Shown in pieces: positions 1,413-63,324 of a stretch of DNA of 64,000 nt. A program made the translations under genes and the position numbers. The notes beneath the pieces are model-generated. The model saw only the letters and a list, made by a program, of their open reading frames with translations, did no database searches and was not told the origin of the DNA. Source of the DNA: Phoronis australis (lineage: Eukaryota > Animalia > Phoronida); NCBI GenBank assembly GCA_002633005.1, contig NMRA01000210.1:515104-579103 (forward strand). The letters are read 5' to 3'. The number at the start of each line of letters is the position of its first letter. Position 1 is the stretch's first letter.

Positions 1413-1437
1413 AAACGGTTGTTGTTGCTGTTTGCAG

Positions 1438-2676: not shown

Positions 2677-2839
2677 GGCATCAGAACTGAAGGAACATGG
2701 TTACTTCAAGGGTATTGACTGGCAGCAGGTGTCCTTACAGAAGTACACGCCTCCTCTGATCCCCCCACGGGGTGAGGTTAATGCAGCTGATGCCTTTGAC
2801 ATTGGGTCGTTTGACGAGGACGATACTAAGGGGATCAAG
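2677..2839 (+). CDS. GRK2: GRK2/3 exon (AGC C-terminal tail)
   Basis: caccag|...|gtaata; [54 protein letters not shown]. Confidence 0.95.
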
Positions 2840-3269
2840 GTAATAATACGGAGTAACTTACAATAATATTTGTAAGGTATATATGTAATATTTGCTATAT
2901 ATTATTAAGCTTTAAACTGTCATGAGATTTGTTCGGGGCTTGGAATTTTCCGTGGAAACGCGGATTTCCGCTTTTTTCAAATGTTCTGTCCGCGTATTTT
3001 ATTATATTTCCATGTAAAAAATATCGGATTTGATGTAAAATTTCCGCGGCAAATTTCTTTCTTGCTGCGGCGTTGCCGACAACTTTCACCTCGGAAAGCA
3101 AGAAGTTGCTCTTTATGTTTCGGAGGAATGTAAATTGTCATCATTGCCGGGGCACCTGGGATAGCGTGGTTTTCTTCAATGGCACCTCGTGAGATTGTAA
3201 ATCGTGGTGACAAATAGACGGATGAGCTAAAAAGACGCACGCAGACGCACGCTTCAGTAGGTGGTACCT

Positions 3270-3362
3270 TTTTTTTAGTCCTCCCGATGTTTTGTCGGCA
3301 AAAGGTCCACATCGACAACATTTCGAGCCCCCCCCCCATTTTCAAGGCTGGGTGCGCGCCTG
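3270..3362 (-). mobile_element. Terminal fragment of the MITE family at 17037-17304
   Basis: TTTTTTAGTCCTC...TTCGAGCCCCC...GGCTGGGTGCGCGCCTG matches the reverse complement of 17037-17127. Confidence 0.6.
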
Positions 3363-5196: not shown

Positions 5197-5420
5197 GGGG
5201 TCGGGGTACAATCTTTTTTCTGAAAATCGAACTCGAAATTTATTTTGGCATTTTTCATTCTACTTTTGTGCGAACTCAAGAGAAGCGTCTATTAGTCTGT
5301 GTTCAAGTACATTATGGTTTAGGTGCATGAGTTTCTATTCCAAGTTCATACTTTATGACCCCTAGATTCGAGCTATAATCTTGAGTAAAAAGTCAAGTTT
5401 TTAATTCAGACTCGAATTTA
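5197..5420 (+). mobile_element. Partial copy of the MITE at 8139-8528
   Basis: AATCTTTTT..GAACTCGAA..TTTTGGCATTTT..CGAACTCAAGA..AAGTACATTATG aligns with 8150-8260. Confidence 0.65.
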
Positions 5421-5786
5421 ATGCCGGGCTCATCAAGAGCAAGCTAGGATTAACAGATTAGGCTGCGGGCCCAGATGTTGAACACGCTGCCATCTGTTGG
5501 TATATCCCATTTACATCTGTTGATATGTATATGCTTTACAAGCATATTTACTGCTCTAAATTTGCGTGCTTTGAGTAGCTCATGTCCAGTCTTGCTTCAT
5601 GTGTTATACGAGGCTGTCGAGAGCCTGGTTTCCCCAATAACCCGTGACCAGTATTCGAGGTATTTGCTCTTGTCGATGCATTTCAAGGGCGTGTGCTTAT
5701 GTGGACTTCTTCCGAGTTATTTCGATGGAAGATAGTGTCCTCGGCCACGTGACAGACTGTCTGAAGTGCAGTGTCTTCTCTTGTAG

Positions 5787-5949
5787 CTGTCTGACTCTGA
5801 TCAAGAGCTGTACAGGAACTTCCCACTTGTTGTCTCGGAGCGTTGGCAGCAGGAAGTAGCCGAAACTGTGTTTGAAACTGTTAATCAAGAAACGGACAAA
5901 ATCGAGCAAAAGCGGCGGCAGAAGCCCAAGACTGAAGAAGTTGATGCTG
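5787..5949 (+). CDS. GRK2: GRK2/3 exon
   Basis: ttgtag|...|gtaggt; [54 protein letters not shown]. Confidence 0.95.
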
Positions 5950-6388
5950 GTAGGTTTCGCCTTTAACATTTAATCTAATTAAGCCGCAGTGCTATTCATA
6001 GGTGGAGCAAAACATGTGTGATATCGTGTTACCCTGGCAGCACTTGGAGGATTGTGGTGGTGTTAAAACACCAGTGTGCTTGATATCACGTGTCAAAAGT
6101 TATCCTCTAATTCAGATATTACACTAAGATGTATATTTGGTTCTGGTTCATGCCCAGACTCATTTTGAAACCTGCACCCAACTACTTAAAGCCGTAAAAA
6201 CAAGTTCTATACAGACCACTTACCATTATGGAACTGGTCTCAAATCATTCCTTACTTTCAAGGCTTCCAGACAACTAGCAGTTTGTTATTTTTTTCTGAC
6301 CATGCTCATAAAATTCCGATCATGGCTTAAACTGAAAATTTTTGAGCTTTTTATGAAGAAGTAAATGAACAGTAATGGTGGGATATAA

Positions 6389-6492
6389 CTGATATAACGT
6401 GCCTGAATTTTGAGAACCAGTTTTCTCCGCTGAATAATGGGCATCAAACTGGTTCTCAAAATACGGGCAGGTTATATCAGACTATTGCCGTA
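6389..6492. mobile_element. Short palindromic MITE (Tc1/mariner-like), copy 2
   Basis: CTGATATAACGTGCCTGAATTTTGAGAACCAGTT / AACTGGTTCTCAAAATACGGGCAGGTTATATCAG, ending ...TATTGCCG-TA. Confidence 0.7.
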
Positions 6493-7648
6493 ATGAACTG
6501 TCCTATCTTGCCAAGCCTAGAGATCACTTTTAAACTGCATAGGGAAAAAGATCAAGCCAATTTTATAATTGTAAATGGCCCTATCACAAAACTTGGTTTT
6601 TGACAGAAAGCGCTGTTTAATATCATTTAAACAAAAGACTCACATCCTTACCAAGTGCAACACATAGCTATCCAGCCTGACTTTTAAATGATGTGCTTCG
6701 TCAACTCGGCCACAATCACCTCCTTAATGACATTTTAAAATTGATGTAACTACTGGCTGAAATGAACTAGTGTCACTCCCGTCTCCCAGTCAATGCCAGT
6801 ACGGCCAATTGCATCACTGGACCAATCGCATCACTTGACCTGAGGAAAAAACATCACTTAAGTTGATATTAGATGAATTTTAATTTGCTGACCACCTAAT
6901 ATAGAATACTTCATCACCACATCAGTTTTCAAAACAAACAGTCCAGAACCAGCTATGTTCGTTTGGCCTTACATGGAAAATATTCATCCTATTGAGATCT
7001 TACAGTAAATTGTGCCAAATTAACATGCAAGTTTTCAATCAAACTAGGATAATCAGAATGGTATGACATGTTTGGGATGATGTAGTTACAAACTGCCCTA
7101 TCTTCAACTTGGGATGATGTAGTTACTAACTGTGTCCTATCCTCAACTTGCCATGCTTAAATGTTTTGACCTTCACAGTTATAAGTGAAGTCCTTCGCTA
7201 AAACTCGTCGGTTCTTCCAAATCACAGAAATCACTGTTTAAATTGAGTGCAGCATCAGCAGGTCAAAAAAATTGTGCAAAAGAAATGAGAATCAAATGGT
7301 TCATTATGCCAATATGAGAATAAATGAAGAAAACGAAACGTGTTGGCTTGCCTTATCTCGTGACTCAATTTTTTGTGAGGATCACAAAATCAAATTAAAA
7401 CATTCGTCACTTGTCACTGTGTAAAACGTGATGTCCCAAGGTAAAAGTCAAATTACTTAAACAGCACTCAAGATAACTCAAACTTGACTAGGAGCAGGCC
7501 AGGGCTAACTTGTCATTGGTAATTGTTTTTTGAAGTTGAAAATTGATAAGAACCAGTAATTTGTGAGCGAGGATGGTTGTTGTGAGCGTACATTGCGTGC
7601 TTGATAGTGACCTAGACATCACTGTGTTTGTGTCCTGCTTGCTGGTAG

Positions 7649-7803
7649 GTCCTACCGACTGTATTGTGGAGGGTGAGGTGCTAAAGTTGGGCGGACCATT
7701 CCTGCAAACATGGCAGAGAAAGCACCTGAAACTGTACCCCAACAGGCTGGAGTTCTACCACAAGAACCGTGACGGACAAGTAGTGAAAAGCAAAGGTGTA
7801 GAG
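7649..7803 (+). CDS. GRK2: GRK2/3 exon, PH domain N-terminal part
   Basis: ggtag|...|gtaagg; [51 protein letters not shown]. Confidence 0.93.
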
Positions 7804-7818
7804 GTAAGGACACCACTG

Positions 7819-8135
7819 GTGCCTGTTTCATCAAAAAGTGACTTGTGACTTCCGACAGAAATTTGGCCTCGCGCTCCCACTTGAAAATTGCTGAAAAAAG
7901 TCTTAGCCAAATAACTGTGACTGCATGGCAGTCTAGAAATGATTTAAAGAATTTATCCTAGTGACTGGCAGCCATGTACATGCTGCCAAATTATCTTAGT
8001 GACTGGTAGCCGTGTGCGTATTGCCAAACTTACATTTGCTCAAATGAGATTTACATATTTTTCAGAAATAGTTGTGTGGGGCATAAGACCAAATTTCTGA
8101 CTTAAGTCTTTAGTCACTTTTCATAAAACAGACCC
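7819..8135. mobile_element. PIF/Harbinger-like MITE family A
   Basis: TIRs GTGCCTGTTTCATCAAAAAGTGACT / AGTCACTTTTCATAAAACAGACCC; CTG and CAG flanks; more copies at 10994-11271, 52639-52874 and an end at ~60795. Confidence 0.7.
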
Positions 8136-8138
8136 CAG

Positions 8139-8528
8139 GGCCTAGTCGCTAATCTTTTTGTTCGAAATGGAACTCGAACTTATGTTTGGCATTTTCTACT
8201 CTACATTTGTACGAACTCAAGATAAGTGTCTGTTACTCTATGCTCGAGTACATAATGACTTACGTGGATAATTCATTAGTCCTAGTTTGCAGTTGATAAA
8301 CCCAATATTAAGGTTAAAATTTCAAGTTTGAACTCGACTTTGTAGTTTCAGGTCAATATAAGGGTCATCAGATGCAAACTTGAACTGGAAACTCCTCATA
8401 TGCGTATAAACTATAATGTATTCAAGCACAGTCTAATAATCACTTACCTTCAAGTTGCACAAAAGTAGCAGAGAAATTGCCAAATTAATTTCACTTTCGT
8501 TTTGAGTATAGAGATTAGAGACAGGGCC
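8139..8528. mobile_element. PIF/Harbinger-like MITE family B with CAG target-site duplication
   Basis: TIRs GGCCTAGTCGCTAATCT / AGATTAGAGACAGGGCC with long imperfect inner inverted arms; CAG at 8136-8138 and 8529-8531. Confidence 0.75.
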
Positions 8529-8950
8529 CAGGTCTATTAAAGGCTTCACGGTGCATGACACATAATCCGACGAGAAGAAGTAGATATTAAAAATCTTTTC
8601 AACTTACTGAGAGATTAGACTTTTCCCACAAGGAACCTCTTGCTGAGGGGTGTCCATGCTCACAATGAGGCGAGCAATGCAGTGGCTTTAACCATGTGAT
8701 CGAATCACATTTCACAGATGCAACAATCCTTGCTTGTAAATCTCAAGTTTACACAAGTCTTTGTACATTTTCACCATGCATTACTTTCAAAGCATGTGTT
8801 CACACTAGCTTTACGCGCGAGTGTCTTGGGTCTACGTTAAACAGCCCTAGAGCGCTGCATAACGTCAACCCTTGATACGAAGGTGGAGATAAACTTTTGT
8901 TAATCATTGCTACCCTCTGTATCAAGACTGAGGTGTTTTTGTTCTTGCAG

Positions 8951-9067
8951 CTGGTCTCCATGCTGGATATTAAAGAAATCCTAACAGATTTTCAGAAGTT
9001 GAACAAAACAGAGAACTGTATTGTCGTTCATTTAAAAAATGACCAAAAGTTGGCTGTCACATCACCG
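8951..9067 (+). CDS. GRK2: GRK2/3 exon, PH domain
   Basis: ttgcag|...|gtaagt; LVSMLDIKEILTDFQKLNKTENCIVVHLKNDQKLAVTSP. Confidence 0.9.
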
Positions 9068-9805
9068 GTAAGTCAACTACTACCACGTTAATACCGTTGC
9101 TCCTTGTGTCCGGGATCATATAGTGTCGCATGTTACTAGATCTAGACTTGCTATTGTTACTTTTTACCTAATACTTTATTGCCTTATAAAGTCTGTATAA
9201 AAAAATTACTCAGTTCCTGTTTTTACTCCAGCTCATGCACAAGTAAACGTTCATCGAATAAATTCCATTTTTCTTCAAATTAACTGGCTTCAAGTCAGCG
9301 CGAAGAAGACAAAGTTGTGATTAGTTGTTCACTCATTTCCTCACCCAGCGTTGACCTATTACTAGCGTTTGGAATCGCATTTAATAAGGTCATAGGATTT
9401 CTTTTATGCATTTAACTTTTTAAATAAAATGTAGTTACTTGGTTATGAGCATGTAGGCATTATTTTGATGCACGTAAAGACTCTGTGATCTTCAATATTA
9501 AAAAGTGGCTGTGGTTCTCTTAACCATTTTACACCATACCTGTGGTAAATACTCTCACTGTGTAGTATTTATTTCATCTCTTTGAAATCCAATTTTCACC
9601 ACCCTTCGTCATTTATTTATTATCTTAATTCTCAACCTATTTTAATTGCATCTCTTTTACATGTATTTAAGTGTTGTTGTATTACTTAATTGTATTATAT
9701 TACTGTTTTTTGTTATTGAGGGCCCTCTTGGAAAGCAGTGTACTTCTTGGTTATCGTATGGTTGAAACCAAATGTATGTCTCTGACCTGTGTAGTCTGTC
9801 TATAG

Positions 9806-9976
9806 GACAAGGTGTTGATTAACCAGTGGAAGGATGAGATCATCAATGGCTTCCGTATGTCCACTCAAATCATGGCCAACATGAACCCCAAAGCCTCCAA
9901 GATGTATGGCGCACAGTGTAACAATCACAACTCGAACCGACCACCTCTGGAACACCGCAACAGTAACGGCAGTTAA
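9806..9976 (+). CDS. GRK2: GRK2/3 terminal coding exon (copy 1)
   Basis: ctatag|; DKVLINQWKDEIINGFRMSTQIMANMNPKASKMYGAQCNNHNSNRPPLEHRNSNGS-stop; PH C-terminal helix (QWKDEI) and a GRK3-like HRNSNG tail. Confidence 0.88.
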   Translation, partial: DKVLINQWKDEIINGFRMSTQIMANMNPKASKMYGAQCNNHNSNRPPLEHRNSNGS

Positions 9977-10091
9977 GCTGGTTAGGTGACGTGGTGAAAT
10001 CCAATCATGAAATCCTGGTGGTGGCAACGATAGGAACTGCCGAGGACAGCCTGTTGAGACCGTGTCACCAGTTGATGTCAGACGGGGCAGN

Positions 10092-10183
10092 CTGGCCACT
10101 TTATGGTACCAATAAACAACCCTAGAAGGATACCGTATGCGGTGCAATTGTGGGCGCATTTCAACGCTCCGCGTTTCTCTTGT
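10092..10183 (+). mobile_element. 3' end of the HINE/Helentron-like element (present before GRK last-exon copy 2 only)
   Basis: TGGCCACTTTATG..AAACAACCCTAGAAG..GTGGGCGCATTTCAACGCTCCGCGTTTCTCTTGTT aligns with 55035-55126. Confidence 0.75.
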
Positions 10184-10278
10184 TGTTGTTGGGGGCCCTT
10201 TTGGAAAGCAGTGTACTTCTTGGTTATCGTATGGTTGAAACCCAATGTATGTCTCTGACCTGTGTAGTCTGTCTATAG

Positions 10279-10449
10279 GACAAGGTGTTGATTAACCAGT
10301 GGAAGGATGAGATCATCAATGGCTTCCGTATGTCCACTCAAATTATGGCCAACATGAACCCCAAAGCCTCCAAGATGTATGGCGCACAGTGTAACAATCA
10401 CAACTCGAACCGACCACCTCTGGAACACCGCAACAGTAACGGCAGTTAA
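10279..10449 (+). CDS. GRK2: GRK2/3 terminal coding exon (copy 2, probably the other haplotype; continuous with the 3' UTR)
   Basis: Same peptide as 9806-9976 with one synonymous ATC/ATT difference; the two copies are separated by a single N at 10091. Confidence 0.8.
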   Translation, partial: DKVLINQWKDEIINGFRMSTQIMANMNPKASKMYGAQCNNHNSNRPPLEHRNSNGS

Positions 10450-10993
10450 GCTGGTTAGGTGACGTGGTGAAATCCAATCATGAAATCCTGGTGGTGGCAA
10501 CGATAGGAACTGCCGAGGACAGCCTGTTGAGACCGTGTCACCAGTTGATGTCAGACGGGGCAGGACTGTGGCACAGTCACTGGGCATCATGTGGAGCGGC
10601 TGACATTTTGTATGTTTCTAAACACCATTTTGGTTTATGTCAGTGAACACGCTTCCAACAAACTGTAACATCAGCGGGTTTATTTTTGTATATTTATTGT
10701 TTTGTTCTTCTTCAATTGGTCTGCCGCTGCGCCGATTTGATCATTAGCCTGGACTGTGAGTTTGTTAGCTGACCAAGTGGGGGTGCTGCAGGGTGATGGT
10801 TGCTAGGTAACACGCCTACAAGTGTGTTGAGGAACTCTTGGTAAATGGCTGTTTCCTTCTGAATGATAAAATTGGAACTAGGCGATAATGTTGAACGCAG
10901 TGTTGTGTGTCACCAGTGAGCATGTGATAGCGATTTTTTAATTGTTGATTTATTATCAGAGTTAACGTATCAAACTCAACATGAGGTTATAAC

Positions 10994-12209: not shown

Positions 12210-12932
12210 ATGTGGATTCACCGAGTCTTCAACCTGGCTTCTTACAGTAGAGGCTGTGTTTGTATTGGCTGTATGTAAAGTGACAGTCCTTGGCGAGTAT
12301 CAGGAGTGGATCCAGGATTTTGAGTTATGGGGGGCCTGGGCAGAATATTAGCCGGAATTTTGCCTGCCAGACATTCGCACCCCTAAACTAATGGAATCCG
12401 GGAGAATTTTAGGGGGGGCATGCCTCCCTTGGCCCCCCTCTAAATCCGCCACTGAGTACAGTTATTAAATCTGGTTAGTGATCTGTCACAGAACACAATA
12501 TCCGCGAGGCTGCCTCACTCCATCTGTCTTGTGCTTCTCTTGCGGGTCCCTGCTGTTCATCATGTCAACCNATGTGGATTCACTGAGTCTTCAACCTGTC
12601 TTCTTACAGTAGAGGCTGTGTTTGTATTGGCTGTACGTAAAGTGACAGTCCTTGGTGAGTATCTGGAGTGGATCCAGGATTTTGAGTTATGGGGGGCCAG
12701 GGGAGAATATTAGCCGGAATTTTGCCTGCCAGACATTCGCACCCCTAAACTAATGGAATCTGGGAGAATTTTAGGAGGGGCATGCCTCCCTTGGCCCCCC
12801 TCTAAATCCGCCACTGAGTACAGTTATTAAATCTGGCTAGTGATCTGTCACAGAACACAATATCCGCGAGGCTGCCTCACTCCATCTGTCTTGTGCTTCT
12901 CTTGCGGGTCCCTGCTGTTCATCATGTCAACC
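12210..12932 (+). repeat. ~360-bp direct duplication across the single N at 12571 (probable haplotype overlap); each copy contains a ~155-bp CAGGAGTGGATCC...ATCCGCCACTG MITE
   Basis: 12210-12570 and 12572-12932 are near identical with scattered SNPs. Confidence 0.85.
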
Positions 12933-20689: not shown

Positions 20690-21943
20690 ATTTTTGGGTT
20701 ATAGGGCTACTCTTCCCTCATTTTTAGAGGTAGTGCTACCCTTCGTTGGGGTTTTCTGTACAGTGTCATGATTGTGTCCAGTTACAACTACTAGAGGTCA
20801 CTCTGGTGGAAAAGAACTTTATTTAGCACACCAAAGACCAATGGAAAACAGTGATTCATCATTCATGCTGAGGCAAGAAAAGAAAAATGAGTGTGTTTTA
20901 TGCATTTTTCGAATCAGCAGAAAGAGAAAGTTTAGAAAATGTCAATATTAAGTGGTTAGGATTTTGAAGTCACATTGTAAAAAATAACCATGATGGTTAT
21001 AGGTAAGTAAACCGTTTTACTGCATCACAGACCTGTTTATTTTGATCATGGCCTACTTTGTTTATATTGTTTGCATGACAGGGATATAATCCACAAATGT
21101 GTTCATGCCTCAGGAAGTGATACATTATTATTCATAGGTCACACGCATATGATGGGTTCAATGCTCTCGACAGGCTTTTTGTACATGGCCAGCTACCACA
21201 CTCAAATTTCAGGCCACCATATTTGAATCACACCGACATGATAATTTTCTTAGCCGCCACGCTCAAACACCAAAGTCATGTTTAATATCAGCAATGCAAT
21301 TTTCATGCTCTAAAGTGAAATACTAACCTCAGTATTGACTGTCTCTGAAACTCTGCTTTCACTGTGTTGCTGGCAACTGAAATGTAGCATGGGGTGTTTT
21401 GAAACAAATAGCAGAGATTAATGACTGCAGAGCTCATTCATATCCAGTGACTCACACACGCCTGCCATTTGGAAGTAGACTTGCTTCATTTTTTGGAACT
21501 CTCATTCACACACCTACCGACACTAGTTTACACTAACAACTGAAACCGAGTTGATGTGGCACAACAATTTGTCTTCCTAAAACCACTATGAGGTGGTAGA
21601 CAACCTCTAGCCTATTTACATTGGTCAGTGGAGGCTGGCGGTTGGTGTAAATAGACCAATAAAATTTAGAAGTGATGTCACAACCATGTATGTTTAACAG
21701 AAGTTGATTCGGAATGAGTTGATGCTAGGGTGTTAATGTTGTCACCAATTTCTGCCCAGAGGAAGTCGTACTAATCCTCTCGTTGTATGTCAACTACATG
21801 TCTAAAGACAAAACTACGTAAAGCTGGAATGGATCAAGTCAGCACCGTGCCTCCTTGTGGCAATTTCTTTTTTCGTTTTTCTCTGTTTCTTTGGAGGTCC
21901 TTAACAGATTTTTGTGAAATGAGGTAAATAGGTTGCTACTGAA

Positions 21944-26477: not shown

Positions 26478-26619
26478 TTTGACCCTAAGAGGTCAGGGAT
26501 GTTCCAAAGTTGAAATGTTATTTTTTATAAAGTTTGGGCTTTCAGATCAGACCAGAAATGTTAGTGTAGCCACAATTTTAAATTTTTTGTCTCGAGGTTG
26601 ACCTTTTCACGGAACGATG

Positions 26620-26835
26620 ACATGCTCCCGTTATTGGGTGGATGCAGCGCATTTCGTGCCATCTAGTGGCCATTTTTACTGTTTTCCAGTCTGTTTTTGG
26701 TGTCACCCCTCTGTCGACCACACCACTATAAGGATGATTTTGAGAGAGGAAGGTTGGTAGTGATATTTGAATGACTCCAACTACTGTGGCGCCCCATAGT
26801 GACGGTTCTTTTGCATTGATGGCTATATCTCTTAA
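26620..26835 (+). repeat. Fragment (about 1.5 monomers) of the HINE internal ~150-bp repeat
   Basis: GTGCCATCTAGTGGCCATTTTTACTGTTTT..ACCACTATAAGGATGATT..AACTACTGTGGCGCC aligns with 46710-46880. Confidence 0.75.
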
Positions 26836-27984
26836 AGGCGAAGGCAACCTTTTCTCATGTCACTTTTAGCAAAAATAAGGTTCGTTGATTATCCCAGACA
26901 CAAAGTGATCATTATTAAAATGTGGAGATGTGTTCCTGACCAAGGCTGTTGCTGATTTTCGAACGTGTCCGACTATGCTGTCACCCTCTAATGGCATTTT
27001 TTTGCGTCCGTCTGTATCTCATTTACCCTTTGTCCTATGGAGATGGCAACAGGTGATGACAAATTTCAGACCAGTCCAACTACAGCTGTGCTCCGTATTG
27101 GAAGTTTTATTTTTCACGTTTGCCTCTGTAACTTCATAGTTCCTTGATGCTTTTTCATGTCATGAAATTTGGCAAACAAATTTTTGTTTTGAGGACGATA
27201 GCATCTTTTCATTTTGTGATGGATTGGACGTATTCTGCAACAAGTGGTCGTGGAGCAAACTAGTGGAGCTATGCCCAAGTGTTGTAAAATCAGATGCTGA
27301 CGGGCAATGTCAGCCCTGGAGTTCCACACCTTCTGCTGTAACGGGTATGGTCTGGGGAGGGGATTAATTCACCAGCATATCCCCGATGATCCTGTCCGTG
27401 ACAGGTATTACATGTATTACAGGTAAATGTTCCCAAATTGTCACATTTAAAAAAATCTTAGCGTGCAGCGCTAGCTTGCGATAACTTCGATGATGACAGC
27501 GTCACCTACTGTTAAATTCGCTTTTCATTCACAACCGAAGCCAGTATGAACAGTCCAGTTAATTGTGCTGTTTACGTTGACGCTCCGCTCAGACCGGAGT
27601 TAGTCAATATGAAAGGGCCTTAAGGCTCTTGAGGATTTCGTGAAAATCTTATAGATTTAATGTAGGACGTACACAAACACAAAACGGATCTTTAGGCTTT
27701 AAGCTTGTGACATGTGATTAGCACATTATGCAATTTGCAATCCAAAACTTTGTCATTTGGTGCACATGTGGGGTCATTTTTCGCATTTTTCATGCAACGC
27801 ATATTCCTCTATGTAGACTATTGGACATTCATGATTCTCAGGTCATTCATTATTTTTATGTAATTCACTTTTGTTGCACTGTCATGACTTCTAAGGGTCA
27901 GTTGGTACAAAAAGTTATTTTTTGTTGAAATTTGAAGATGTATTTTTTTACTTCAATACAGTTGTAAGGTTAAGTGTGTTAAAG

Positions 27985-44199: not shown

Positions 44200-44441
44200 G
44201 AGGAGGCAGTGTGGCCTGGTTGATAAGTGCCCGCTTTCTTTACTCGAGGTCGTGGGTTCAAGTCCCACCAGGTCACACTGCTAAACCCTTGAGCCAGGTT
44301 TCTAGCTCCTCAGCTCGGTTTTAACTATATATCAATGAAGCATAAAAATATTTCCAGGTGATCAGTGCAATGGGCCCACATGCGAGGCCTGCGCACGTCT
44401 GATACAACGTGTATCAGACCGCCTGCAATTAAAAAAAAAAC
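44200..44441 (+). mobile_element. Full-length tRNA-derived SINE with poly(A) tail and 11-bp TSD
   Basis: A box TGGCCTGGTTGAT, B box GGTTCAAGTCC (44255-44265), 3' hairpin GTCTGATACA-ACG-TGTATCAGAC, A10 tail, GGTTACAGTGA at 44189-44199 and 44442-44452. Confidence 0.9.
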
Positions 44442-44896: not shown

Positions 44897-45022
44897 CCCG
44901 TTGCCCTATCGCCGTTCACATTTGAGACAGAACTCGATGACCTGCCGAAAGAGAAATTAAAGGAGTTGATATTTGAAGAGATCATCTTTTTAGAAAAGAA
45001 GAACCAAGGACTCATAGAATAA
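44897..45022 (+). CDS. MAPK1: ERK exon 9 with stop codon (total CDS 1092 nt, 363 aa)
   Basis: ttgcag|[41 protein letters not shown]-stop. Confidence 0.95.
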
Positions 45023-45458
45023 GGCAAGTGTTGACACAGGCTGCTATTAAGTTTCAGGATTTGTCAACTGATATAATCATTTAATGTCAGTGAGCACCCT
45101 CTAGTGTCCATTCATTGAACATAAGTATGGACCTCACTTAGTAGTACAAGAAAGAACACTAGAACACTAGTCTAGAACACTAGTCTCCCACGAGTACCTG
45201 CCAATCACACATGCCCCAACACACACTCACTCACATAATAACACGAGTACATTGAAGGAACATTTAAACTTGCTTCGATCATATATAATAACGATTTAAG
45301 AATTTGAGGTTGATGTAGTCTTTAGCATTAGTTATATTTCAGATCGTCTCGATCCCAGAAATGTCCTTGAAACCAAGTACAGATATATGTGTATTTGTTG
45401 CCGAGTCAAAAATGATATCGTTTGGAAAAACAAAGATCTTGGAAATCATCTTAAGCAA

Positions 45459-47227
45459 TTTTTATGCGCCAACATATTTCTGTGGTCGCATATTGCCGTC
45501 ATCTCTGTCTGGGTGTCCGTTGTCCCGTGTCCACCATCTGCAGCTGTATCTCCTAAACCCCTTACAGGGTCTTGATGAGATTTGGCAGACATGTTCCTAT
45601 TTAGCTGACGACGGAGGACGACAAATTTCGGACCTCTCCGACTACAGATGTGCCCCCTAGTGGAAATTTTAGTTTTTTAAACTTATCTCTGTATCTTTGG
45701 AAGTCCTCTGAGTCAATGGATTTTCATAAAATTTAGCAGGAAGATGAGGCTATCATCCTGTTTTATGATGGATTCAAGGTGTTTTGCACCACCTAGTGGC
45801 CATTTTTACTGTTTTCAGGTCTGTTTTTTGGCGTCCGCCCTTCTACAATCAAACTGCTCCAGGTGTGATTTTGAAAATTGGAATATATGTTCCTACTGTG
45901 GAGAGGGTGGCTGATGATGATTTTCCGACGATTTCAACTACTGTGGTGCCTCCTAGTGGCAGTTTTGTTTGTTTTTGTGCCCATGGCTGCATCGCCTAAA
46001 TGCTCTACAGGATCTTTATTGAATTTTACCGGTGTATTTATATGAAGTTGAAAGTAGAGTATGACGACATTCGAACGGATCGGACTATTGGTGTGTCCCC
46101 TAGTGGCATTTTTTTTGTTTTTACATTTACCTCTGTATCTTCAAAGGTTCTCAACAGATTTTCATAAAATTTAGCAACTACGCATTTATTAGTGAGGTAA
46201 GCTATCCTCTGGTTTTTGGTTGAATTTGGGTATTTTGTGCCACCTAGTGGCCATTTTTACTGTTTTCGAGTCTCTTTTTTGGCGTCCGTCCTTCTGTCAA
46301 TCAAACTGCTCTAGGGATGATTTTGAAAATTGGCATTATGTTCTTTCTATGAAGAGGGTGGCTGACGATGATTTTCCGACAACTTCAACTTCAACATCTG
46401 TGGCACCTCCTAGTGGCAGTTTTGTTTGTTTTTGTGGCCATGGCTGTATCTCCTAAATACTCTACAGAATCTTTATTGAATTTTACTGGTGTATTTATAT
46501 GTTTCAGAAGTTAAAAGCAGAGTACGACGACTTTGGAACGGATTGGAGTATTGGTGTGTTCCTTAGTGGCATTTTTTTTGTTGGTTTTTTTGGTTTACCT
46601 CTATATCTTTAAAGGCTCTCACCAGATTTTCATAAAATTTAGGAAATAGGCATATATTAGGAAGGTGACGTTCGTTATCCTCTGTCTTTTGGTTGAATTC
46701 GAGGTATTTTGCGCCACCTAGTGGCCATTTTTACTGTTTTCAAGTCTGTTTTTTCGGCATCTGCCCCTCTGTCTACCAAACCACTCTAAGGATGATTGTG
46801 GAAATTGGCATATATGTTCCTAATGTGAAGTGGAGGGTTGATGATTTTCTGACTTAAACTACTGTGGTGCCTCCTAGTGGCAGTTTTGTTTTTTTTTTGA
46901 CCCCATAGCTGTATCTCCCAAACACTCAGCAGGATGTTTAATTAAATTTAGCAAATGTATTCATATGAAGTTGACAACGGATGATGACGACTTTCAGACG
47001 TATCTGACGAACGCTGTGTCCCCTAGTGGCAATTTCATTTTTTTCTGTTTTCCTCTATTTCTTTGAAGTTCCTTTATGGATTTTTATGAAATTCCAGAAA
47101 TAACTTTCTATTAAAAAACAATGGCATGATCCCATTTTGGGACAGATTGGATGTATTTTGCGCCATCTAGTGGCCATTTTATGCGGTGGATTCGTGGACG
47201 CATTGCAACACTCTGCGTTGCTCCCGT
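45459..47227 (+). mobile_element. Helentron/HINE (DINE-1/pearl-like) non-autonomous element with an internal ~150-bp tandem array
   Basis: Starts in a T-run: TTTATGCGCCAACA..TGTGGTCGCATA 5' palindromic subTIR, GTCY-rich tract, 11 monomers, 3' subTIR GTGGACGCAT plus stem-loop GCAACACTCTGCGTTGC. Confidence 0.75.
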
Positions 47228-48053
47228 AGAAGATGTTAAAATGCAAAGTCCATGCTTATCGATACGATTGTTGGGGCATGCTTGTACTAGAATTTGATTC
47301 NNNNNNNNNNNNNNNNNNNNNNNNNNNNNNNNNNNNNNNNNNNNNNNNNNNNNNNNNNNNNNNNNNNNNNNNNNNNNNNNNNNNNNNNNNNNNNNNNNNN
47401 NNNNNNNNNNNNNNNNNNNNNNNNNNNNNNNNNNNNNNNNNNNNNNNNNNNNNNNNNNNNNNNNNNNNNNNNNNNNNNNNNNNNNNNNNNNNNNNNNNNN
47501 NNNNNNNNNNNNNNNNNNNNNNNNNNNNNNNNNNNNNNNNNNNNNNNNNNNNNNNNNNNNNNNNNNNNNNNNNNNNNNNNNNNNNNNNNNNNNNNNNNNN
47601 NNNNNNNNNNNNNNNNNNNNNNNNNNNNNNNNNNNNNNNNNNNNNNNNNNNNNNNNNNNNNNNNNNNNNNNNNNNNNNNNNNNNNNNNNNNNNNNNNNNN
47701 NNNNNNNNNNNNNNNNNNNNNNNNNNNNNNNNNNNNNNNNNNNNNNNNNNNNNNNNNNNNNNNNNNNNNNNNNNNNNNNNNNNNNNNNNNNNNNNNNNNN
47801 NNNNNNNNNNNNNNNNNNNNNNNNNNNNNNNNNNNNNNNNNNNNNNNNNNNNNNNNNNNNNNNNNNNNNNNNNNNNNNNNNNNNNNNNNNNNNNNNNNNN
47901 NNNNNNNNNNNNNNNNNNNNNNNNNNNNNNNNNNNNNNNNNNNNNNNNNNNNNNNNNNNNNNNNNNNNNNNNNNNNNNNNNNNNNNNNNNNNNNNNNNNN
48001 NNNNNNNNNNNNNNNNNNNNNNNNNNNNNNNNNNNNNNNNNNNNNNNNNNNNN

Positions 48054-49300
48054 GTTTTGTTTGTTTTTGTGCCCATGGCTGCATCGCCTAAATGCTCTAC
48101 AGGATCTTTATTATGTATGACGACATTTGAACGGATCCGACTATCGGTGTGCCCCCTAGTGGCATTTTTTTTTGCTTTTACATTTACCTCTGTATCTTCA
48201 AAGGTTCTCAACAGATTTTCATAAAATTTAGCAACTACGCATTTATTAGTGAGGTAAGCTATCCTCTGGTTTTTGGTTGAATTTGGGTATTTTGCGCCAC
48301 CTAGTCACCATTTTTACTGTTTTCGAGTCTCTTTTTAAGCGTCCGTCCTTCTGTCAATCAAACTGCTCTAGGGATGATTTTGAAAATTGGCATTATGTTT
48401 TTTCTGTGAAGAGGGTGGCTGACGATGATTTTCCGACAACTTCAACTTCTGTGGCACCTCCTAGTGGTAGTTTTGTTTGTTTTTGTGGCCATGGCTGTAT
48501 CTCCTAAATGCTCTACAGAATCTTTATTGGAATTTTACTGGTGTATTTATATGAAGTTAAAAGCAGAGTACGACGACTTTGGAGCGGATTGGAGTATCGG
48601 TGTGTTCCTTAATGGCATTTTTTTTTTGGTTTTTTTGGTTTACCTCTATATCTTTAAAGGCTCTCACCAGATTTTCATAAAATTTGGGAAATAGGCATCT
48701 ATTAGGAAGGTGACGTACGTTATCCTAGTGACCATTTTTACTGTTTTCAAGTCTGTTTTTTCGGCATCTGCCCCTCTGTCTACCAAACCACTCTAAGGAT
48801 GATTGTGGAAATTGGCATGTTCCTAATGTGAAGTGGAGGGTTGACGATTTTCTGACTTCAACTACTGTGGTGCCTCCTAGTGGCAGTTTTGTTTTTTTGT
48901 CCCCATAGCTGTATCTCCTAAACACTCAGCAGGATGTTTAATTAAATTTAGCAAATTTATTCATATGAAGTTGACAACGGATGATGACGACTTTCAGACG
49001 TATCTGACGAACGCTGTGTCCCCTAGTGGCAATTTCATTTTTTTCCGTTTTCCTCTATTTCTTTGAAGTTCTTTTATGGATTTTTATGAAATTCCAGAAA
49101 TAACTTTCTATTAAAAAACAATGGCATGTTCCCGTTTTGGGACAGATTGGATGTATTTTGCGCCATCTAGTGGCCATTTTATGCGGTGGATTCGTGGGCG
49201 CATTGCAACACTCTGCGTTGCTCCCGTAGAAGATGTTAAAATGCAAAGTCCATGCTTATTGATACGATTGTTGGGGCATGCTTGTACTAGAATTTGATTC
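48054..49300 (+). repeat. Second assembly of 45962-47300 (element plus unique flank) after an N gap; probable haplotype duplicate
   Basis: Includes the same unique 3' flank (AGAAGATGTTAAAATGC...GAATTTGATTC) at an offset of exactly 2000 bp. Confidence 0.8.
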
Positions 49301-49660
49301 TGTATGGAAAATCGTTCAGTTAAATACTGGTAAAATAGTGTCAAAAGAAACAATGTTACAGGCGATACTTAAGAAGTGTAACTCATTGGTTTGTGACATT
49401 TTTTCGTAAGATTTTGGTGACTTCATATCCTGTTTTTCACCAAGAAACAGTTCGGCATTCAACATCAATTTCCTGTCTCTAGAACGAAAATGTTCAGTCC
49501 AACTTTGGGGTGTACTTTTCTTCAACTACACAAATGTCATTAAATATATCCTCACCAGAATATCACCTCATCAAGTGTCTAATATATGGATTTTGTCATT
49601 TCGTACTAACGCAGCTCCATACAACCCACTGATAATATGATATGCTTTGTTCCATTGTAG

Positions 49661-52600
49661 GCCTCCAACTGACCAGATCTGACTTCTGTGAATTCCAGCT
49701 TGTGTGCACAGCTACTAACCTGCAACCCTGTTGATGTGCTGTACCACCGTATGAAAGGCTATCTCATTTTCACCCATAGACTATGGTGTCTGTACCCACT
49801 GGCAGGGCCAGGGGACAGTCATCCTCATAGACATTCACTGCTTTGTAGCGACTGGATTTATCAGGTGCTCCCGTAGACAGTGAAATTCGTCATGGAACTG
49901 CATTTCAACCTGCCTTGCGCACGTCACTAGACCGTCACCTCTAGACGAAGTGTGCTGTATTTCAACGCGAAACTGTCAGCAATTCATGTTCCAAATCCGA
50001 CTCGTGTTACTGTAGTTAATTTGTTTATGAAGCATGCCGTGTCGTGGTCGTCGTGAAATGAGAGGTATAGGATTTCCAATTTCTCCATATTGTCATGCAT
50101 ATGTAAACATGTGATCTTTACTGTGGAACATTGGTTGTTGCCGAGATCATTTTACTGTGGCCGTAGTGATGTATTAGTCCCGTTTAACACTTATCACACA
50201 GTGCAATCACGTCTTATTGGTGGTTACATGTTGTGTTCGGATGTCACTTTGACATTGTGTCTTGTCTTTCACTTTTGAAGTGACTAGTGCTTTTTAACAA
50301 ATAATCATGTATTTGTATATATATATATATTTATACATCAAAATCAATGGCTTATGTCGCTCATTGTAAGTCTGCGAAGGCAGACATGCCCCAGAAAGCT
50401 AACTGGAGCCATAGATATGTAGAAACCAATGTAATCTTGGCTTAGTGTTTTGTGTTGAGCTTGTGGTATTGTTCATGAGCCTTTGTTGGGAAGACTTGCT
50501 TTATATAAAAAATAGGGTAGTGTCACTTATCTTTTTCCACAGTTGCAGGTAATTTACTCTTTTTGAAACCAGTTTGGTGACTTTTTCGAGTTCCTCGTTG
50601 TGAGTCTAAGCTAAGTGTGTCTGTTATTCAGGGTAACTCTTAAACTCTGACTCATTGATGCGAATATTGCCGAGTGCATGCACTTGTGTTGGAATGTTCT
50701 TGCTGACAAGTGCTGAGAACGGAACTCTTTGTATCTGATGCCGACTGGGAGGTGTGTTAAGGAGTAGTCCTTCTGTACAATCGAATCGTAGCAATGTGTC
50801 AAGTGTTGCATAAATGCTTCATTCCCACTAACAGGGCCACTTGAGGGAAATAGTTTGTTTCTCTGGAACGCACTCTTAATGAGTAACACGATTTATGGAG
50901 CTGTTATTTGGCAGTGCTTACTCGTAAAGTTAGTGGCACTGGAAGACTTTGATCAAGCAAAGAGGATTGGTCACATGAGATGGATGATTTCTGCTGCCAT
51001 GGTGTATTGGGAGGTACTTCTGGTTTGTAGCGGATGTTACAGGGGAACACTTTTGAGTGCAAAAAACATTTACTGTGTTTGCATATTTTAGATTTTTTTC
51101 CCAGGAGAGAAGTTATTTTGTTATCATCTAGGAAGTACACTACGGACATCTGCTACAAGAAATATTTTCCAGCGCCATATTATACAAAAACCTGACTCGA
51201 TAAACTTCTAGTAAACATCTATTGTGTCGCAATAAATGACAACTCTAACTACTTGGCTTCCAGTGAGCACAAATTTGCTGATCAATATGTTTGTTGAATG
51301 AGAATAAGATTCAAGAGGCTCCTGGTCACACTTGATGTACGAGATGAGCTTATCACCAGGGGCCTATTCTTCAACACAAGATACTTTCCTATGAAAGCTA
51401 TTGTGATTATGTGCTTCACTTATGATGCATGGCGATGTTGCTTTCCTTGCAAAAATGTTGCTCAGATTTGAACATTGAGCATGTGTGGTGATTCACTTAG
51501 GAGCAATTCTTGGGTGTGAGTCAGCGGGTTCACTTTATCGATTGCCATTGCTTCTCAATATTCTCTGGTTGGCTGAAGATCAGCTTATTAAAATCCTTTG
51601 CAGACCCAATGGGTTACTCAATAATCACTATGTGCTAATTAAGAAAGCTATTTAATTCCCGTTAACACCAGAGTGGATTGAAAACAGTTCGTCTCCATGA
51701 AGGTGTTTGGGTGATGTGACCCCCTGGTCTTGAATGCACACATTTCTATGAGTGCGACTCTCGTTGCTCTGCCGTCACCTCGTGAGTTTCCCATTGCTTA
51801 ATGTTCAGATTTAAGCAAACTGTGGATGGTTACGAATTTGTTCTGGAGTGATAGAGTAAACATCTATCTGATTTACACGCTGATGTTGAGGTGTCACCAG
51901 GGGACCACTAGTCCACTACATTTAAATTGATGAAAAATTAATTTGGTCGCATGCTACGTCATCGGAATGTCTGTATATTCTTTTTGTTTGTTGTTGCACC
52001 TTTTTAGATGATGGTTATAAGCCTATAATGACTGTATGTTATTGTTATATACATCAGTTGATGCATGTTCTCTAATGGCATCTCAAAATGTTATAGTTCT
52101 GCAAGTTTTTATGTATTCTATTGCTAGTAATGAACCAGTCTTATCATCTTTCAACAAGACTTCACGTTTCGTGTGTATGACAAATCATGTATTTCGTTTC
52201 TACTATAAAATACAGTAACGCTTGCTCTGTTGTATTGAGAATGGTATACGCATACAAAATATTTTTGTCTGCTTTAGCTACATGGCTGTCATTCGCTGTA
52301 GGGGTTCTCCCACTCACGGAAAATATGGAAATTTGCTACTATAGGGAACTTTTTGTATAAAAACTATGGAGGGGCTGTAGGGAGGGAGGGGCTGTAGGGA
52401 GGGAGGGGTGGGTATTTCAAAACTAACTCCAGTGGCATACACACCCATTGATTGCTGAATCAATCACCACCTCACCCCCCTCACTGGAGCCATGATCGAA
52501 TTTTGACTGCATCGTATTGTGTAGACTTGTGCTAATATCTGCATAAGGTGGATGGAATTGGGTACTGAGAAACTTGATAAATTGTTAATATACCCGCACC

Positions 52601-53465
52601 AGCCATGAATGAAACCTTTGACAGGTAAGGACCTCTATGGTCTGTTTCATGAAAAGTGACTAGAGACAGAATTTTGACTCGCGTTCCCACGTTTTTATGA
52701 ATTAAGTTCATGCCACGTAATTGCTGTCACATCACAGATTATAAATTATTTATGATAAATATATGAGCATGTGGCATATTTTCAGACACCCTGTACTTTT
52801 GCCGAGGTTACCTAAAATGATTTTTCAAAAATCGTGTGGCCTGCAGGTCTCGAGTAACTTTTCGTAAAACAGACAAGCTCGGCCAGTTCTAGGAATCCGT
52901 CGTGGGAAGTCGACTTGTTGCCAATGTCATTACCGCAGTTTGTTCTGCCGCAGATGAACACTTTGGTCTATGACCACTTTACTCAACAAGATAGTAAACA
53001 AATCAGATGCCACTAATCCAGTAGTTTCAAATTTCGTGGTCTTAAAGCATGTGGTTAATTTTTCTTAAATGACCGCACTCTTCTTGATTTCGTGTTTGAT
53101 CAATTCTCATTGGGAGTGTAAAGCAGTGTGTCGAACAAAGATTGAAAGCGATTACAGCGAAATGTTTAGTACTTCCCCAGAGGCTGTGTTGATAAAAGTC
53201 TCCATCTCTTGTCAGTTGCTTGGCAGAAAGAATCTTTGTACAAGTTTCAATGAAGATTAGCTTTGTTTCACGTTTATTCTTTTTGAGAGTTTATTATTTT
53301 ATCCATAGTCATGGATTAGAACGTGACCTTGACATTGACAAGCAGTATGTTACAAGACATTACTGGACAATGATTTTGGTTAAAGTTTTAGTCTTTTCTT
53401 ATACAAATGGTTATATTATTGTGAAAGAAAATCTTATATCGATGTTAGTTATTTGTCTAAATAAA
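49661..53465 (+). other. Probable non-coding terminal (3' UTR) exon of ERK
   Basis: Acceptor TGCTTTGTTCCATTGTAG at 49660; long TGT-rich UTR-like tract; AATAAA at 51231-51236 and 53460-53465. Confidence 0.5.
52639..52874. mobile_element. MITE family A copy in the putative ERK 3' UTR
   Basis: GGTCTGTTTCATGAAAAGTGACT / AGTAACTTTTCGTAAAACAGAC. Confidence 0.65.
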
Positions 53466-53850: not shown

Positions 53851-55126
53851 TTTATGCGCCCACATATTTATATGTGGGTGCATATTGCCGTCATCTCTGT
53901 CTGGGCATCCGGCGTCTGCATCTACTAAACCCCTTGCTAGATCTTATTGAAATTTGGCAGGTGTGTTCCTATGGGTTTGACGACAGAGGGCAAAGAGTTT
54001 CGGACCGACCCAAATACCGCTGTGCCCCCCTAGTGGCAAGTTTAGTTTTTTACGTTTGTCTATCTTCAAAGGTCTGCAACCGATTTTCATGAAATTTGGC
54101 ACATAGGCATCTATTAATGAGGTGACGCTATCCTCCCATTTTCCGATGGATTCGAGGCATTTTGCGCCATCTGGTGGCCATTTTTACTATTTTCGAGTCC
54201 GTTTTTTTGGCGTACGTCTCACCATCAACCGAACCACTCTAAGGATGATTGTGAAAATTGACATGTATGTTCTTACTATGAAGAGAACGGTTGACAATTT
54301 TCCTACGACTTCGACTAGTGTGGCACCTCCTAGTAGCAGTTTTGTTTGTTTTTGCGCCCACGGCTGTATCTCCTAAACACTCTACAGGATCTTTATTAAA
54401 TGTAGCAAATGTGTTTATATGAATTTAACAGCAGACAATGATGACTTTCATGACTCCGACTAACACTGCCCCCTAGTGGCAATTTCATTTTTTCTGTTTT
54501 CCTGTTTCTCTGAAGTTCCTTGACGAGTTTTCATGCAATTTGTTAAATAGCTTTCTTTTAAAGAAACTGACATTTTCCGGTTTTCATATGGATTTTACAT
54601 ATTTTGCACCATCAAGTGACCATTTTTACTGTTTTCTAGTCTGTTTTTGTGGTCTGCCCTCTGTCAACCAAACCACTCTTAGGATGATTGTGAAAATTGG
54701 CTTATATATTGTTAGTGTAAAGAAGACATTTGACGATTATTTTCCGGCTTCAATTACTGTGGCACCTCCTAGTGGCAGTTTTTTGCGCCCTTAGCTGTAT
54801 CTCCAAAACCCTCTGCAGAATGTTTATTAAATTTAGCAAGTGTGTTTATATGATGTTGATAATGGAAGACGACAACTTTCAGACGGATCCGATGAACCTA
54901 CTGGCAATTTCATTTTTTACATTTTGCTAAAGTTTCTCAACGCATTTTCATGAAATGTGGTGAATAGCTTTCTGTTAAAAAATGGTGACATTTTCCAGTT
55001 TTTTGATGGATTCGAAACATTTTTCACTATCTAGTGGCCATTTTTATGACACAAACAAACACCCTAGAAGCACACTGTTTGCAGTGCATTCGTGGGTGCA
55101 TTTCAACGCTCTGCCTTGCACTTGTT
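53851..55126 (+). mobile_element. Independent, diverged full-length copy of the HINE-like element between ERK and PAGR1
   Basis: 5' palindrome ATGCGCCCACATAT-TT-ATATGTGGGTGCAT, about 8 monomers, 3' GTGGGTGCAT plus CAACGCTCTGCCTTG, ends in CTTGTT. Confidence 0.78.
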
Positions 55127-56260
55127 TTGGACGTAGGTGCATAGGCTTAAACACATGCATACCCACAGAATACCATGAAACGTGCGATGAATGAATATCA
55201 AAACATGACAATAAATTCCGTGTGTGTTCAATTTTATAATGGACAATAAAAAGATGACAATACAAGTATAAATTGCAGAATACTCTACTCTAGTTGATTT
55301 TCCAAGGTATTGTCAGGAAAGACCTTAACCTATAATAGGGCAAACTATTGATCTACAAATGTCTTCCGCACACAGAATGGACCACAGTCTCCCAAATATG
55401 GAATCACTCGAGAGCCCAAAAGTAAACTTCAATCATCAAACCATGTTGCGATGTGCCCGGTTTATAATTTTCGCTCATTGATAGCTTCCTGTCTCAAGTC
55501 AACAGTAATAGTGCTTCTGATTTGGTTCATGGACCAGCAAACTTCAGATAAAAACAAACATTTTAGAAAATTCCCAGGTGGGTTTATTGTAACATAATTT
55601 GACACGCAATTATTAAAGCCACAATAAACCTCTGTTCTATCAAAAAATAACACCATTAACACCACTTTTCATCGCCGACATCAAACAACTTTCAACTTGT
55701 TTTTTACTCACATGAAAAGTGGTAAGTGAGATTCAAAACGACAGTTCATTTACTCTTGAGACTCATTTACTATGAAAATCAAGATTATACTGTGTGTTAT
55801 CTTACTGATATGAACCACTAAAGTAATAAGCACATGAAGTATCAAGTCTTTGCCTCAGTTTGGTCGGTAGAGTGCAGAATCAGCGACCAGCCCCTTGAGC
55901 TCAGCATTCATGTTGCCATGGTGATTCTCTGTCTTAGCAAAACGTCTGTCAACTGAGTAATTAGCAGTATTCTCATATGCAGGTCCGAGTGATTCTGCGT
56001 TCTCGAGACTGGAGATAGTAAATTCAATAGTTGAGCAGGTTGATTTCAATGTTGAAAACACATATTTCTCACTCCACCTGATTTAGACAACAAATGTCTC
56101 TGATAAACAAGACGATGGCTTGAAGCTGTGCTTCACATTTGCAGACAATTTCTGCACATAAATATATGCTCGTTTTGGATGGTAAAAAAGAAATGCTCTG
56201 TCACAATTCCACCATCCTGATGATTTTACACTTTACTTCTTCAAAAGCTGCCACTGCGCA

Positions 56261-62952: not shown

Positions 62953-63324
62953 CACAGGCATCTTCAGCTAATTGTCCCCAATACACTATATAATACTATA
63001 AGGTACATGACACTCCGGACTACAAATTCCACGGGTGCTTCACTTCAGCAGTCCATAGCAAATGGAATATGGGCCGGACAGCCGACGTCGACAGTCTCCA
63101 AGACGAACAACAGTCGTCTCTCGATGCCGACAGAAGGCACACGCTGCAGAAGGCCAGCGAAGCAGACTGAGCAGAGAGACAGGTCAAATAACGTCTCACT
63201 ACATTGCTATGGACAACTGAAGTGAAGCACCCATGGAATTTCAAGTCTGGAGTGCCATACCTTGTAGTATTACTAGTATTATATATAGTGTATTGGGGAC
63301 GATCAGAAGCTGAGGACGCCTGTG
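62953..63324. mobile_element. Foldback MITE with ~110-125-bp TIRs and 8-bp TSD (hAT-like)
   Basis: CACAGGCATCTTCAGCT..CAGTCCATAGCAA / TTGCTATGGACAACTG..AGCTGAGGACGCCTGTG; GAGTAGCT at 62945-62952 and 63325-63332. Confidence 0.85.

Follow-up and report, generated by a model that had tools for sequence, protein, structure and literature searches.

HINE/DINE-1 elements are defined by subTIRs, an inverted repeat, a microsatellite and central repeats (PMC4067079), and in the oyster Cg_HINE families the central monomers are 138–181 bp long (PMC7492417). The element that we describe, at 45459–47228 of the window (the whole stretch of 64,000 nucleotides that was analysed), is similar to HINE/DINE-1 and to oyster Cg_HINE1-13 (PMC4067079, PMC7492417) in its subTIRs, inverted repeat, GTCY microsatellite, nucleosome-length monomers, candidate 3' palindrome, T-rich flanks and non-coding nature. 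In contrast to the oyster Cg_HINEs, as far as the available parts of these papers describe them, it carries a strong predicted CTCF core in nearly every monomer, and its monomers form a higher-order repeat of three types. The word "CTCF" is absent from the text and supplements of PMC7492417.

Mobile elements that spread CTCF motifs are known, such as the rodent B2, dog SINEC-Cf and opossum MAR_Mdo SINEs (PMC3368268), and the lamprey hAT-Tip100 repeat #274, a transposon which disperses a CTCF motif and has 80% of its copies under ChIP peaks (PMC5504073). In these vertebrate SINEs and hAT elements binding was seen by ChIP-seq and the available parts of the papers describe no internal tandem arrays, whereas our element comes from an invertebrate and its about ten co-oriented sites are predicted from sequence alone. 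The monomers of the DXZ4 macrosatellite are kilobase-sized. DXZ4/Dxz4 is also a tandem repeat with CTCF sites (PMC3491370), but it is a single X-linked locus, while the family described here is dispersed and mobile. The ISX Helitron of Drosophila miranda (PMC6598467) is likewise a non-autonomous element of the Helitron class which spreads a chromatin-factor motif, refined by gene conversion; however, in ISX the motif serves a dosage-compensation factor, arose by one 10-bp deletion and has a demonstrated host function. The PATC barriers of C. elegans Helitron minisatellites (bioRxiv 10.64898/2026.08.08.743475) are intronic Helitron repeats with phased A/T tracts, proposed to act as chromatin barriers, but they are protein-independent and mechanical, belong to a species without CTCF and, in the available part of the preprint, include no CTCF motif array. 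The parts are known separately, and what appears to be new is the presence of about ten co-oriented predicted CTCF cores inside an invertebrate rolling-circle element. Our literature search, with repeat databases and most subscription papers outside its scope, found no description of CTCF arrays in Helentrons or HINEs in the available texts.

A Helentron-type element within the final ERK intron

Two genes, both on the plus strand, lie in the window: a GRK2/3 kinase gene, represented by its 3' part, and an ERK/MAPK1 gene. Among the matches listed for the GRK PH-domain exon, the best named ones are from a chiton (98%) and from molluscs, nemerteans and annelids (86–96%), and all the named ones are spiralian. 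Judged by its exon sequences the host is a lophotrochozoan, with no single phylum favoured across all exons; a search with an ERK exon gave no placement of it. The locus is organised as follows:

808–9973, plus strand: exons of the GRK2/3 gene, 3' part
19181 (ATG nearby) to 45020–45022 (stop codon), plus strand: ERK/MAPK1 gene
45024–49660, plus strand: last ERK/MAPK1 intron, which hosts the element; GC donor just 3' of the stop codon, AG acceptor
47301–48053, no strand: assembly gap of 753 N
48054–49300, plus strand: most likely the second allele of 45962–47300, placed in tandem by the assembly; identity 97.4% with gaps left aside

Splicing from the end of the exon at 45023 to 49661 is seen in 83 RNA reads (RNA run X7), and RNA depth is zero over 45040–45381 and 49306–49617 but continuous from about 49660 to 53450. 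Since the reads are spliced across it and depth on the intron flanks is zero, the element is intronic and outside the mRNA. A location inside the mature ERK 3' UTR, which we had considered, is ruled out by the same splice reads.

The stretch 48054–49300 is most likely the other allele, assembled twice across the gap, and not a second element. A 383-nt contig (run X2, depth 38.6) shows 0 differences over 47154–47300 and extends beyond that stretch, while a contig of equal length, depth and strand covers 49154–49536 in full with 7 differences; we take the two to be the same contig on the basis of length, depth and strand. The simplest reading of these matches is that the first copy continues straight into the DNA after 49300. 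We rejected a tandem duplication of the element in favour of an allelic duplicate because of the contig matches and the 97.4% identity. Another contig, with 13 differences, also crosses from the flank into the start of the element, and from this the insertion seems to be present on both alleles. Comparable duplications are seen on either side of the single Ns at 10091 and 12571.

The element itself has the following parts:

45459–47228, plus strand: whole copy of the non-autonomous Helentron-type element (HINE); 3' end approximate, termini taken from the loose ends of other copies' reads and contigs
45459–45492, plus strand: 5' T-run, 5' subTIR (45464–45473) and inverted-repeat hairpin
45504–45533, plus strand: degenerate GTCY/GTCC microsatellite-like segment of the left module, of the same motif class as in oyster Cg_HINEs
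45540–47180, plus strand: central array of 11 monomers of 136–166 bp, types C-A-B
47194–47221, plus strand: 3' subTIR (47194–47203) and 5-bp stem-loop (47205–47221)

A 5' subTIR with hairpin, a complementary 3' subTIR, a microsatellite with central repeats, non-coding sequence and multiple copies make up the anatomy of HINE/DINE-1, and so the feature is a non-autonomous Helentron-type element; the rolling-circle class proposed in the earlier note is borne out by these ends and by the array. The 5' hairpin (45463–45492) folds with a z of −3.3, and the same hairpin in the copy at 53853–53884 with −6.6. The 3' subTIR is complementary to the 5' one at 8 of 10 positions (9 of 10 for the other allele, and likewise for the 53851 copy), and a stem-loop with a 5-bp stem and a 7-nt loop is found in the expected place, though its stability does not exceed that of shuffles (z −0.4 and −0.9). 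The flanks are T-rich at both ends in the loose-end consensus of many records, and no direct repeat is visible flanking the element. No stop-to-stop frame longer than 113 aa overlaps it, frames spanning the Ns excepted, and the array at 45540–47180 is not reported by Tandem Repeats Finder. Movement would probably rely on the Rep/helicase of an autonomous Helentron acting in trans.

The element, which had been suggested to be mobile, is present at many loci, as seen in the mixed flanks of reads and contigs at both ends. Other copies share the 5' terminus behind mixed T-rich flanks in 116 reads (X6) and in 30 and 41 contigs (X1 and X2, respectively), and on the 3' side they diverge past the stem into mixed flanks starting with TTGTT (157 + 210 reads, 12 + 9 contigs). 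The proposed boundaries also hold: the similarity to other copies, as judged from their reads and contigs, ends at the 5' T-run and hairpin (45459) and just past the 3' stem-loop (about 47228). Summed contig depth on the element reaches 471,449, compared with about 40 on the unique flanks, which is a mark of abundance and not a copy number. Further pieces of the family are found in the window:

53851–55128, plus strand: complete copy with 8 monomers and about 70% identity, shortly after the ERK 3' UTR; some of its sites decayed
26613–27250, plus strand: older degraded fragment in an ERK intron, with 3 sites at p ≤ 1e-4
21845–21932, plus strand: single type-C monomer fragment in the first ERK intron, with one site of 18.5 bits

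Predicted CTCF cores in the central array

The CTCF core, as defined in PMC10484683 and PMC12885311, is 12–15 bp long and is bound by zinc fingers ZF3–7. We scored the array with JASPAR MA0139.1, a vertebrate-derived matrix which may not fit the host CTCF. By this matrix, 10 of the 11 monomers have a minus-strand match to the CTCF core (16.7–25.6 bits, p 1e-6 to 8e-10):

45648–45666, minus strand: predicted CTCF core, type C, 18.8 bits
45784–45802, minus strand: predicted CTCF core, type A, 21.5 bits
45944–45962, minus strand: predicted CTCF core, type B, 22.2 bits
46091–46109, minus strand: predicted CTCF core, type C, 16.7 bits
46235–46253, minus strand: predicted CTCF core, type A, 24.5 bits
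46401–46419, minus strand: predicted CTCF core, type B, 19.2 bits
46554–46572, minus strand: decayed site, type C, 2.1 bits (−4.0 bits on the other allele, at 48600)
46709–46727, minus strand: predicted CTCF core, type A, 25.6 bits, the best
46865–46883, minus strand: predicted CTCF core, type B, 22.2 bits
47014–47032, minus strand: predicted CTCF core, type C, 19.6 bits
47158–47176, minus strand: predicted CTCF core, type A, 24.2 bits

All eleven co-oriented sites that the earlier note had listed are found where it placed them, on the minus strand and spaced by 136–166 bp (mean 151), with 117–147 bp free between the 19-mers. Its statement that each monomer contains the core is correct for the ten strong matches but not for 46554, which is decayed; mismatches to the 14-base consensus core given there number 2–3 at the ten sites and 5 at 46554. 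The motif clearly exceeds shuffled monomers: single 150-bp slices outscore 20000, 19999 and 20000 of 20000 shuffles, so that the observed score is reached 0, 1 and 0 times (the array being taken as one event), and dinucleotide shuffles of the whole element (n = 2000) contain on average 0.01 CTCF matches, with a maximum of 1. Type C is close to the core of the human IL3 insulator, a proven one, as quoted in PMC12885311. The upstream TGCAG-type motif (ZF9–11), whose usual place is 2–7 bp ahead of the core, was not found within 24 bp at any of the 11 sites, the best matches being 2–3 of 5 bases; this region is an A-tract, and a T/A tract adjoins every site. Beyond the family, 6 sites in the window score above 14 bits where 0.95 would be expected (at most 3 in any of 40 simulations), an excess which is weakly in line with a CTCF-using genome. 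CTCF orthologues were reported in molluscs and annelids, and the CTCF motif is the commonest one in annelid open chromatin (PMC10658182, PMC7854359); among spiralians, flatworms are without CTCF (PMC10658182).

The monomers belong to three homologous types, which follow each other in the order C-A-B and make up a higher-order repeat of about 455 bp. Between-type identity is 0.73–0.74 in the 13-bp core as compared to 0.52 in other windows, the shuffled-monomer baseline being 0.47. In a retention test on 15 monomers of the 45459 and 53851 copies, which excluded terminal monomers as well as the allelic duplicate and the two fragments, the core beats every other 13-mer outside the T-tract in 9 or 11 of the 15, depending on how the unit is cut. 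The T-tract adjoining each site is as well kept as the core, and a box containing AAATTT is also kept between monomers. The claim that the motif is the best-kept part of the monomers is thus upheld against other windows but has to be shared with the T-tract, and the core comes top in only those 9 or 11 monomers.

Conservation of the individual columns correlates with CTCF information content with a Spearman coefficient of 0.45 (p 0.056, not significant). Most bases that differ between types sit where CTCF tolerates variation. Positions 3, 7 and 8, which carry little information, hardly change either, consistent with simple descent or gene conversion. Positions 15–16 vary between CG, CA and TG, resembling CpG decay, and sites decaying in this way would have been methylated, not protected. 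In the copy at 53851–55128 only 3 of 8 sites are above 16.5 bits, and the site at 46554 is decayed on both alleles. Bins with a site do not have significantly greater summed contig depth than bins without one (10 vs 4 bins, p 0.12). Retention of the core across the types together with decay within single copies points to a constraint on the propagating lineage, rather than on each host locus.

Core motifs in other HINE arrays

In the oyster Cg_HINE supplement (covering about 7,151 arrays, each cell truncated to 400 characters; PMC7492417) four exact core words are found 25, 25, 11 and 54 times, that is 115 matches in 3.37 million characters. So few core words indicate that HINE monomers do not yield the motif by default. 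Six core words had 0 matches in the supplements of PMC4067079 (42,774 characters, probably without most element sequences), and the supplement of PMC8268682 had 1 core-word match. On the sequences covered, the CTCF-core motif is not generic to HINEs.

A search for three cores 139–169 bp apart in viral contigs and in 19 of 64 metagenome parts gave 10 viral loci and at least 111 metagenome loci, and a further viral search gave 1 locus. Compared with our element by BLAST, none of 121 loci was better than E 0.009. Most of them are unrelated tandem repeats, often coding, and the ten viral loci look like coding repeats. Three AT-rich arrays stand out, L033, L018 and L113, of which L033 and L018 come from metagenome contigs. 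L033 is a complete HINE, with a 5' hairpin (z −8.2), a GTCC microsatellite and a 3' subTIR and stem, and it has monomers of about 146 bp with six sites at 23–28 bits, oriented as in the element at 45459. L018 carries eight sites with a 162-bp period, which lie downstream of a HINE 5' end (z −7.7) and are oriented the opposite way, while L113 has three sites with a 147-bp period and no ends visible in its 906 bases. At the 8 positions that the search pattern left free, the mean score is 5.2 bits in L033, 6.0 in L113 and 2.0 in L018, compared with −5.8 for random sequence, and only 2 of the 121 loci, L033 and L113, average above 3 bits there. The spacers of the three arrays do not align reliably with those of our element: 2 of 45 masked comparisons exceed z 3, both in L033, and these are not colinear and are lost on correction. 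As the foreign arrays were found via the motif, they demonstrate its recurrence and not its frequency.

Possible reasons for keeping the motif, and orientation of the family

Why, then, would a motif be kept in a lineage whose single copies lose it? We give about an even chance to the proposal that it is kept because recruiting host CTCF would leave new copies open and unsilenced. Zinc fingers 3–7 of the host CTCF would bind the cores, and several occupied sites would create a nucleosome-poor patch of about 1.5 kb rather than a row of phased nucleosomes. A nucleosome core takes 147 bp and would barely fit between sites that are 117–147 bp apart, which argues for the open patch. The nucleosome phasing brought up in the earlier note is not supported, given these gaps and given that a period of about 150 bp is the ordinary HINE length in oyster (138–181 bp), where core words are rare. 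The benefit would go first to the element, as protection from methylation or heterochromatin and as access for the transposase; after insertion each copy would drift and lose sites, and insulation or cohesin stalling would be a by-product, occasionally co-opted by the host. Survival via protection by CTCF from silencing was proposed for mammalian SINEs (PMC3368268). Against such a role, most HINE families described so far do well without the core words that we searched for. If it is real, CTCF recruitment for transposon survival would extend from vertebrate SINEs and the lamprey hAT to rolling-circle elements, and the conserved boxes in HINE central repeats would acquire a functional reason; if binding fails, this is an ordinary HINE family.

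The retention could also be unselected, if an ancestral monomer caught a host CTCF site once and amplification with patchy gene conversion around the T-tract kept it; CTCF might still bind in that case. The homology of the three types, the equally kept T-tract and low-information positions and the CpG-type changes inside the motif would all agree with that, and Helitron-type elements do capture host DNA (PMC4067079), with gene conversion documented among such copies (PMC6598467). However, the spacers have gone down to 0.52, close to the baseline of 0.47, and yet all three types keep a site with p < 1e-6, and the design of one site per monomer recurs in at least two further arrays with HINE ends, whose spacers cannot be aligned, so in our opinion an inherited passenger is rather unlikely. 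Another protein could be reading the conserved word, either the Helentron Rep/helicase or a different host zinc-finger protein, with the likeness to CTCF being secondary. CTAG is a Helitron end motif and is contained in the core, the invariant stretch is GCCACTAG while the 3' half differs between types, and bases disfavoured by CTCF are found at position 12 in type B and at position 14 in most of type C. But CTAG appears dispensable, since CCACCAG is found throughout L033 and L018 and at one site (54162) of the 53851 copy; additionally, the L018 array runs against the direction of its HINE end, oyster HINEs transpose in the absence of the core word, and L033 and L113 agree with CTCF at positions 15–17, which the search pattern had left free. 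We regard such a reader as very unlikely. Finally, a chance likeness could have been multiplied by tandem duplication, given the dependence among array copies and the many motif libraries that might have been tried, but the near-absence of shuffles reaching the observed score, the best p of 8e-10 and the retention across three types make this hardly credible.

The earlier note saw here a mobile insulator or loop-anchor cassette that leaves about ten same-direction sites with every insertion. On this view the sites would block cohesin or enhancers, and the host would keep insertions for this function. The sites are indeed strong and co-oriented, and they point back to the ERK gene body as would be the case at a right-hand domain border. 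In one screen, cited in PMC12885311, insulation depended on several tandem sites; a CTCF-like motif is enriched at the TAD borders of squid (PMC10658182, PMC10658181), and the orientation of the family pieces and of the family RNA, given below, is one-sided. On the other side, the sites decay in situ, and the upstream motif is absent, which PMC12885311 found necessary for IL3 enhancer blocking (perhaps in vertebrates only). CTCF motifs in annelids are mostly single, located at promoters and without directional arrangement (PMC7854359), direct evidence for loop extrusion in invertebrates is called lacking (PMC10658181), and for spiralians it is not established that CTCF anchors loops directionally (PMC10658182, PMC10658181). 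A cassette kept by the host for insulation is, on this evidence, quite unlikely. Directional loop blocking by CTCF in spiralians is called open in reviews (PMC10658182, PMC10658181), and the family, with many loci, copies of different ages and about ten same-direction cores in each, offers a ready test of it. It is similarly improbable, in our view, that unrelated Helentron families of marine animals have converged on CTCF-site monomers, with oriented insertions acting as ten-site one-directional cohesin barriers and as the main source of new spiralian borders; if so, they would be a natural experiment on CTCF directionality outside vertebrates.

All four pieces of the family in the window share the orientation of the ERK and GRK genes. 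RNA reads matching the element stem almost entirely from other copies, with 82% of them continuing into unlike sequence, and they are biased 34:1 and 31:1 towards its plus strand, compared with 3.4–3.8:1 for a neighbouring SINE; the T-run skew within the ERK gene is about 1.5–2:1. A strand bias of this size indicates that the transcribed copies are oriented non-randomly. The mixed flanks at both ends favour an origin of the RNA from many loci; alternatively, a few highly expressed loci may be the source of the bias. Strand-specific insertion at T-runs, purging of the reverse orientation or an effect of CTCF orientation on transcription are possible causes. The word AATAAA, which bears on such purging, occurs in the element 3 times on the minus strand and 0 times on the plus strand.

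Strand bias of element-family RNA and the 3' region of the insertion

Among the family RNA reads, taken as those mapped to window 45382-47300, the plus strand of the Helentron-type (HINE) element outnumbers the minus strand by 31-34:1. This is far above both the ratio of 3.4-3.8:1 found for RNA of the neighbouring SINE and the local T-run skew, and therefore suggests a strong orientation bias of the transcribed copies of the element family. At window 49180-49182 (and 47180), between the last CTCF-like site and the 3' subTIR, about 35 bases present in other family copies are absent from this insertion.

The host gene and CTCF-like sites outside the family

The stop codon of ERK/MAPK1 is followed directly by a GC-AG intron (window 45024-49660) and then by a non-coding last exon of about 3.8 kb, which extends from 49661 to about 53450. 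The intron that holds the element also contains, 350 bp ahead of it, a lone CTCF-like site, scored with the MA0139.1 matrix:

45092-45110, minus strand, predicted CTCF-like site, 18.1 bits

Five other non-family CTCF-like sites in the window exceed 14 bits with the same matrix, one of them (at 36390) falling in an ERK coding exon. Within an ERK intron there is also a high-copy SINE with an A-tail (44200-44431), tRNA-like as judged by eye, over which both DNA and RNA depth are very high.

Other motifs in HINE interiors and in foreign arrays

Motifs of several host factors may accumulate inside HINEs. In L018, a metagenome-contig locus, the words between the HINE 5' end and the CTCF array (1200-1720) are presumably YY1-like, and the direct repeat at window 26474, immediately ahead of a degraded family fragment, we take to be nuclear-receptor-like. 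Another locus, L021, carries at 1640-2400 four copies of a 164-bp unit in which a coding stretch of C2H2 zinc-finger-like character is combined with a CTCF-like site and a GC box; a similar CTCF-like site is found in L099, in units of 148-160 bp.

Probable assembly repeats and a possible MITE

Near-identical direct repeats flank the single Ns at 10091 (window 9707-10479, where the last exon of the GRK2/3 kinase gene is duplicated) and at 12571 (window 12210-12932). Both are probably overlap artefacts, as for 48054-49300, most likely the second allele of the element assembled in tandem. Nested inverted repeats with arms of 25 nt and 55 nt, at window 62968-63306, represent a possible MITE.
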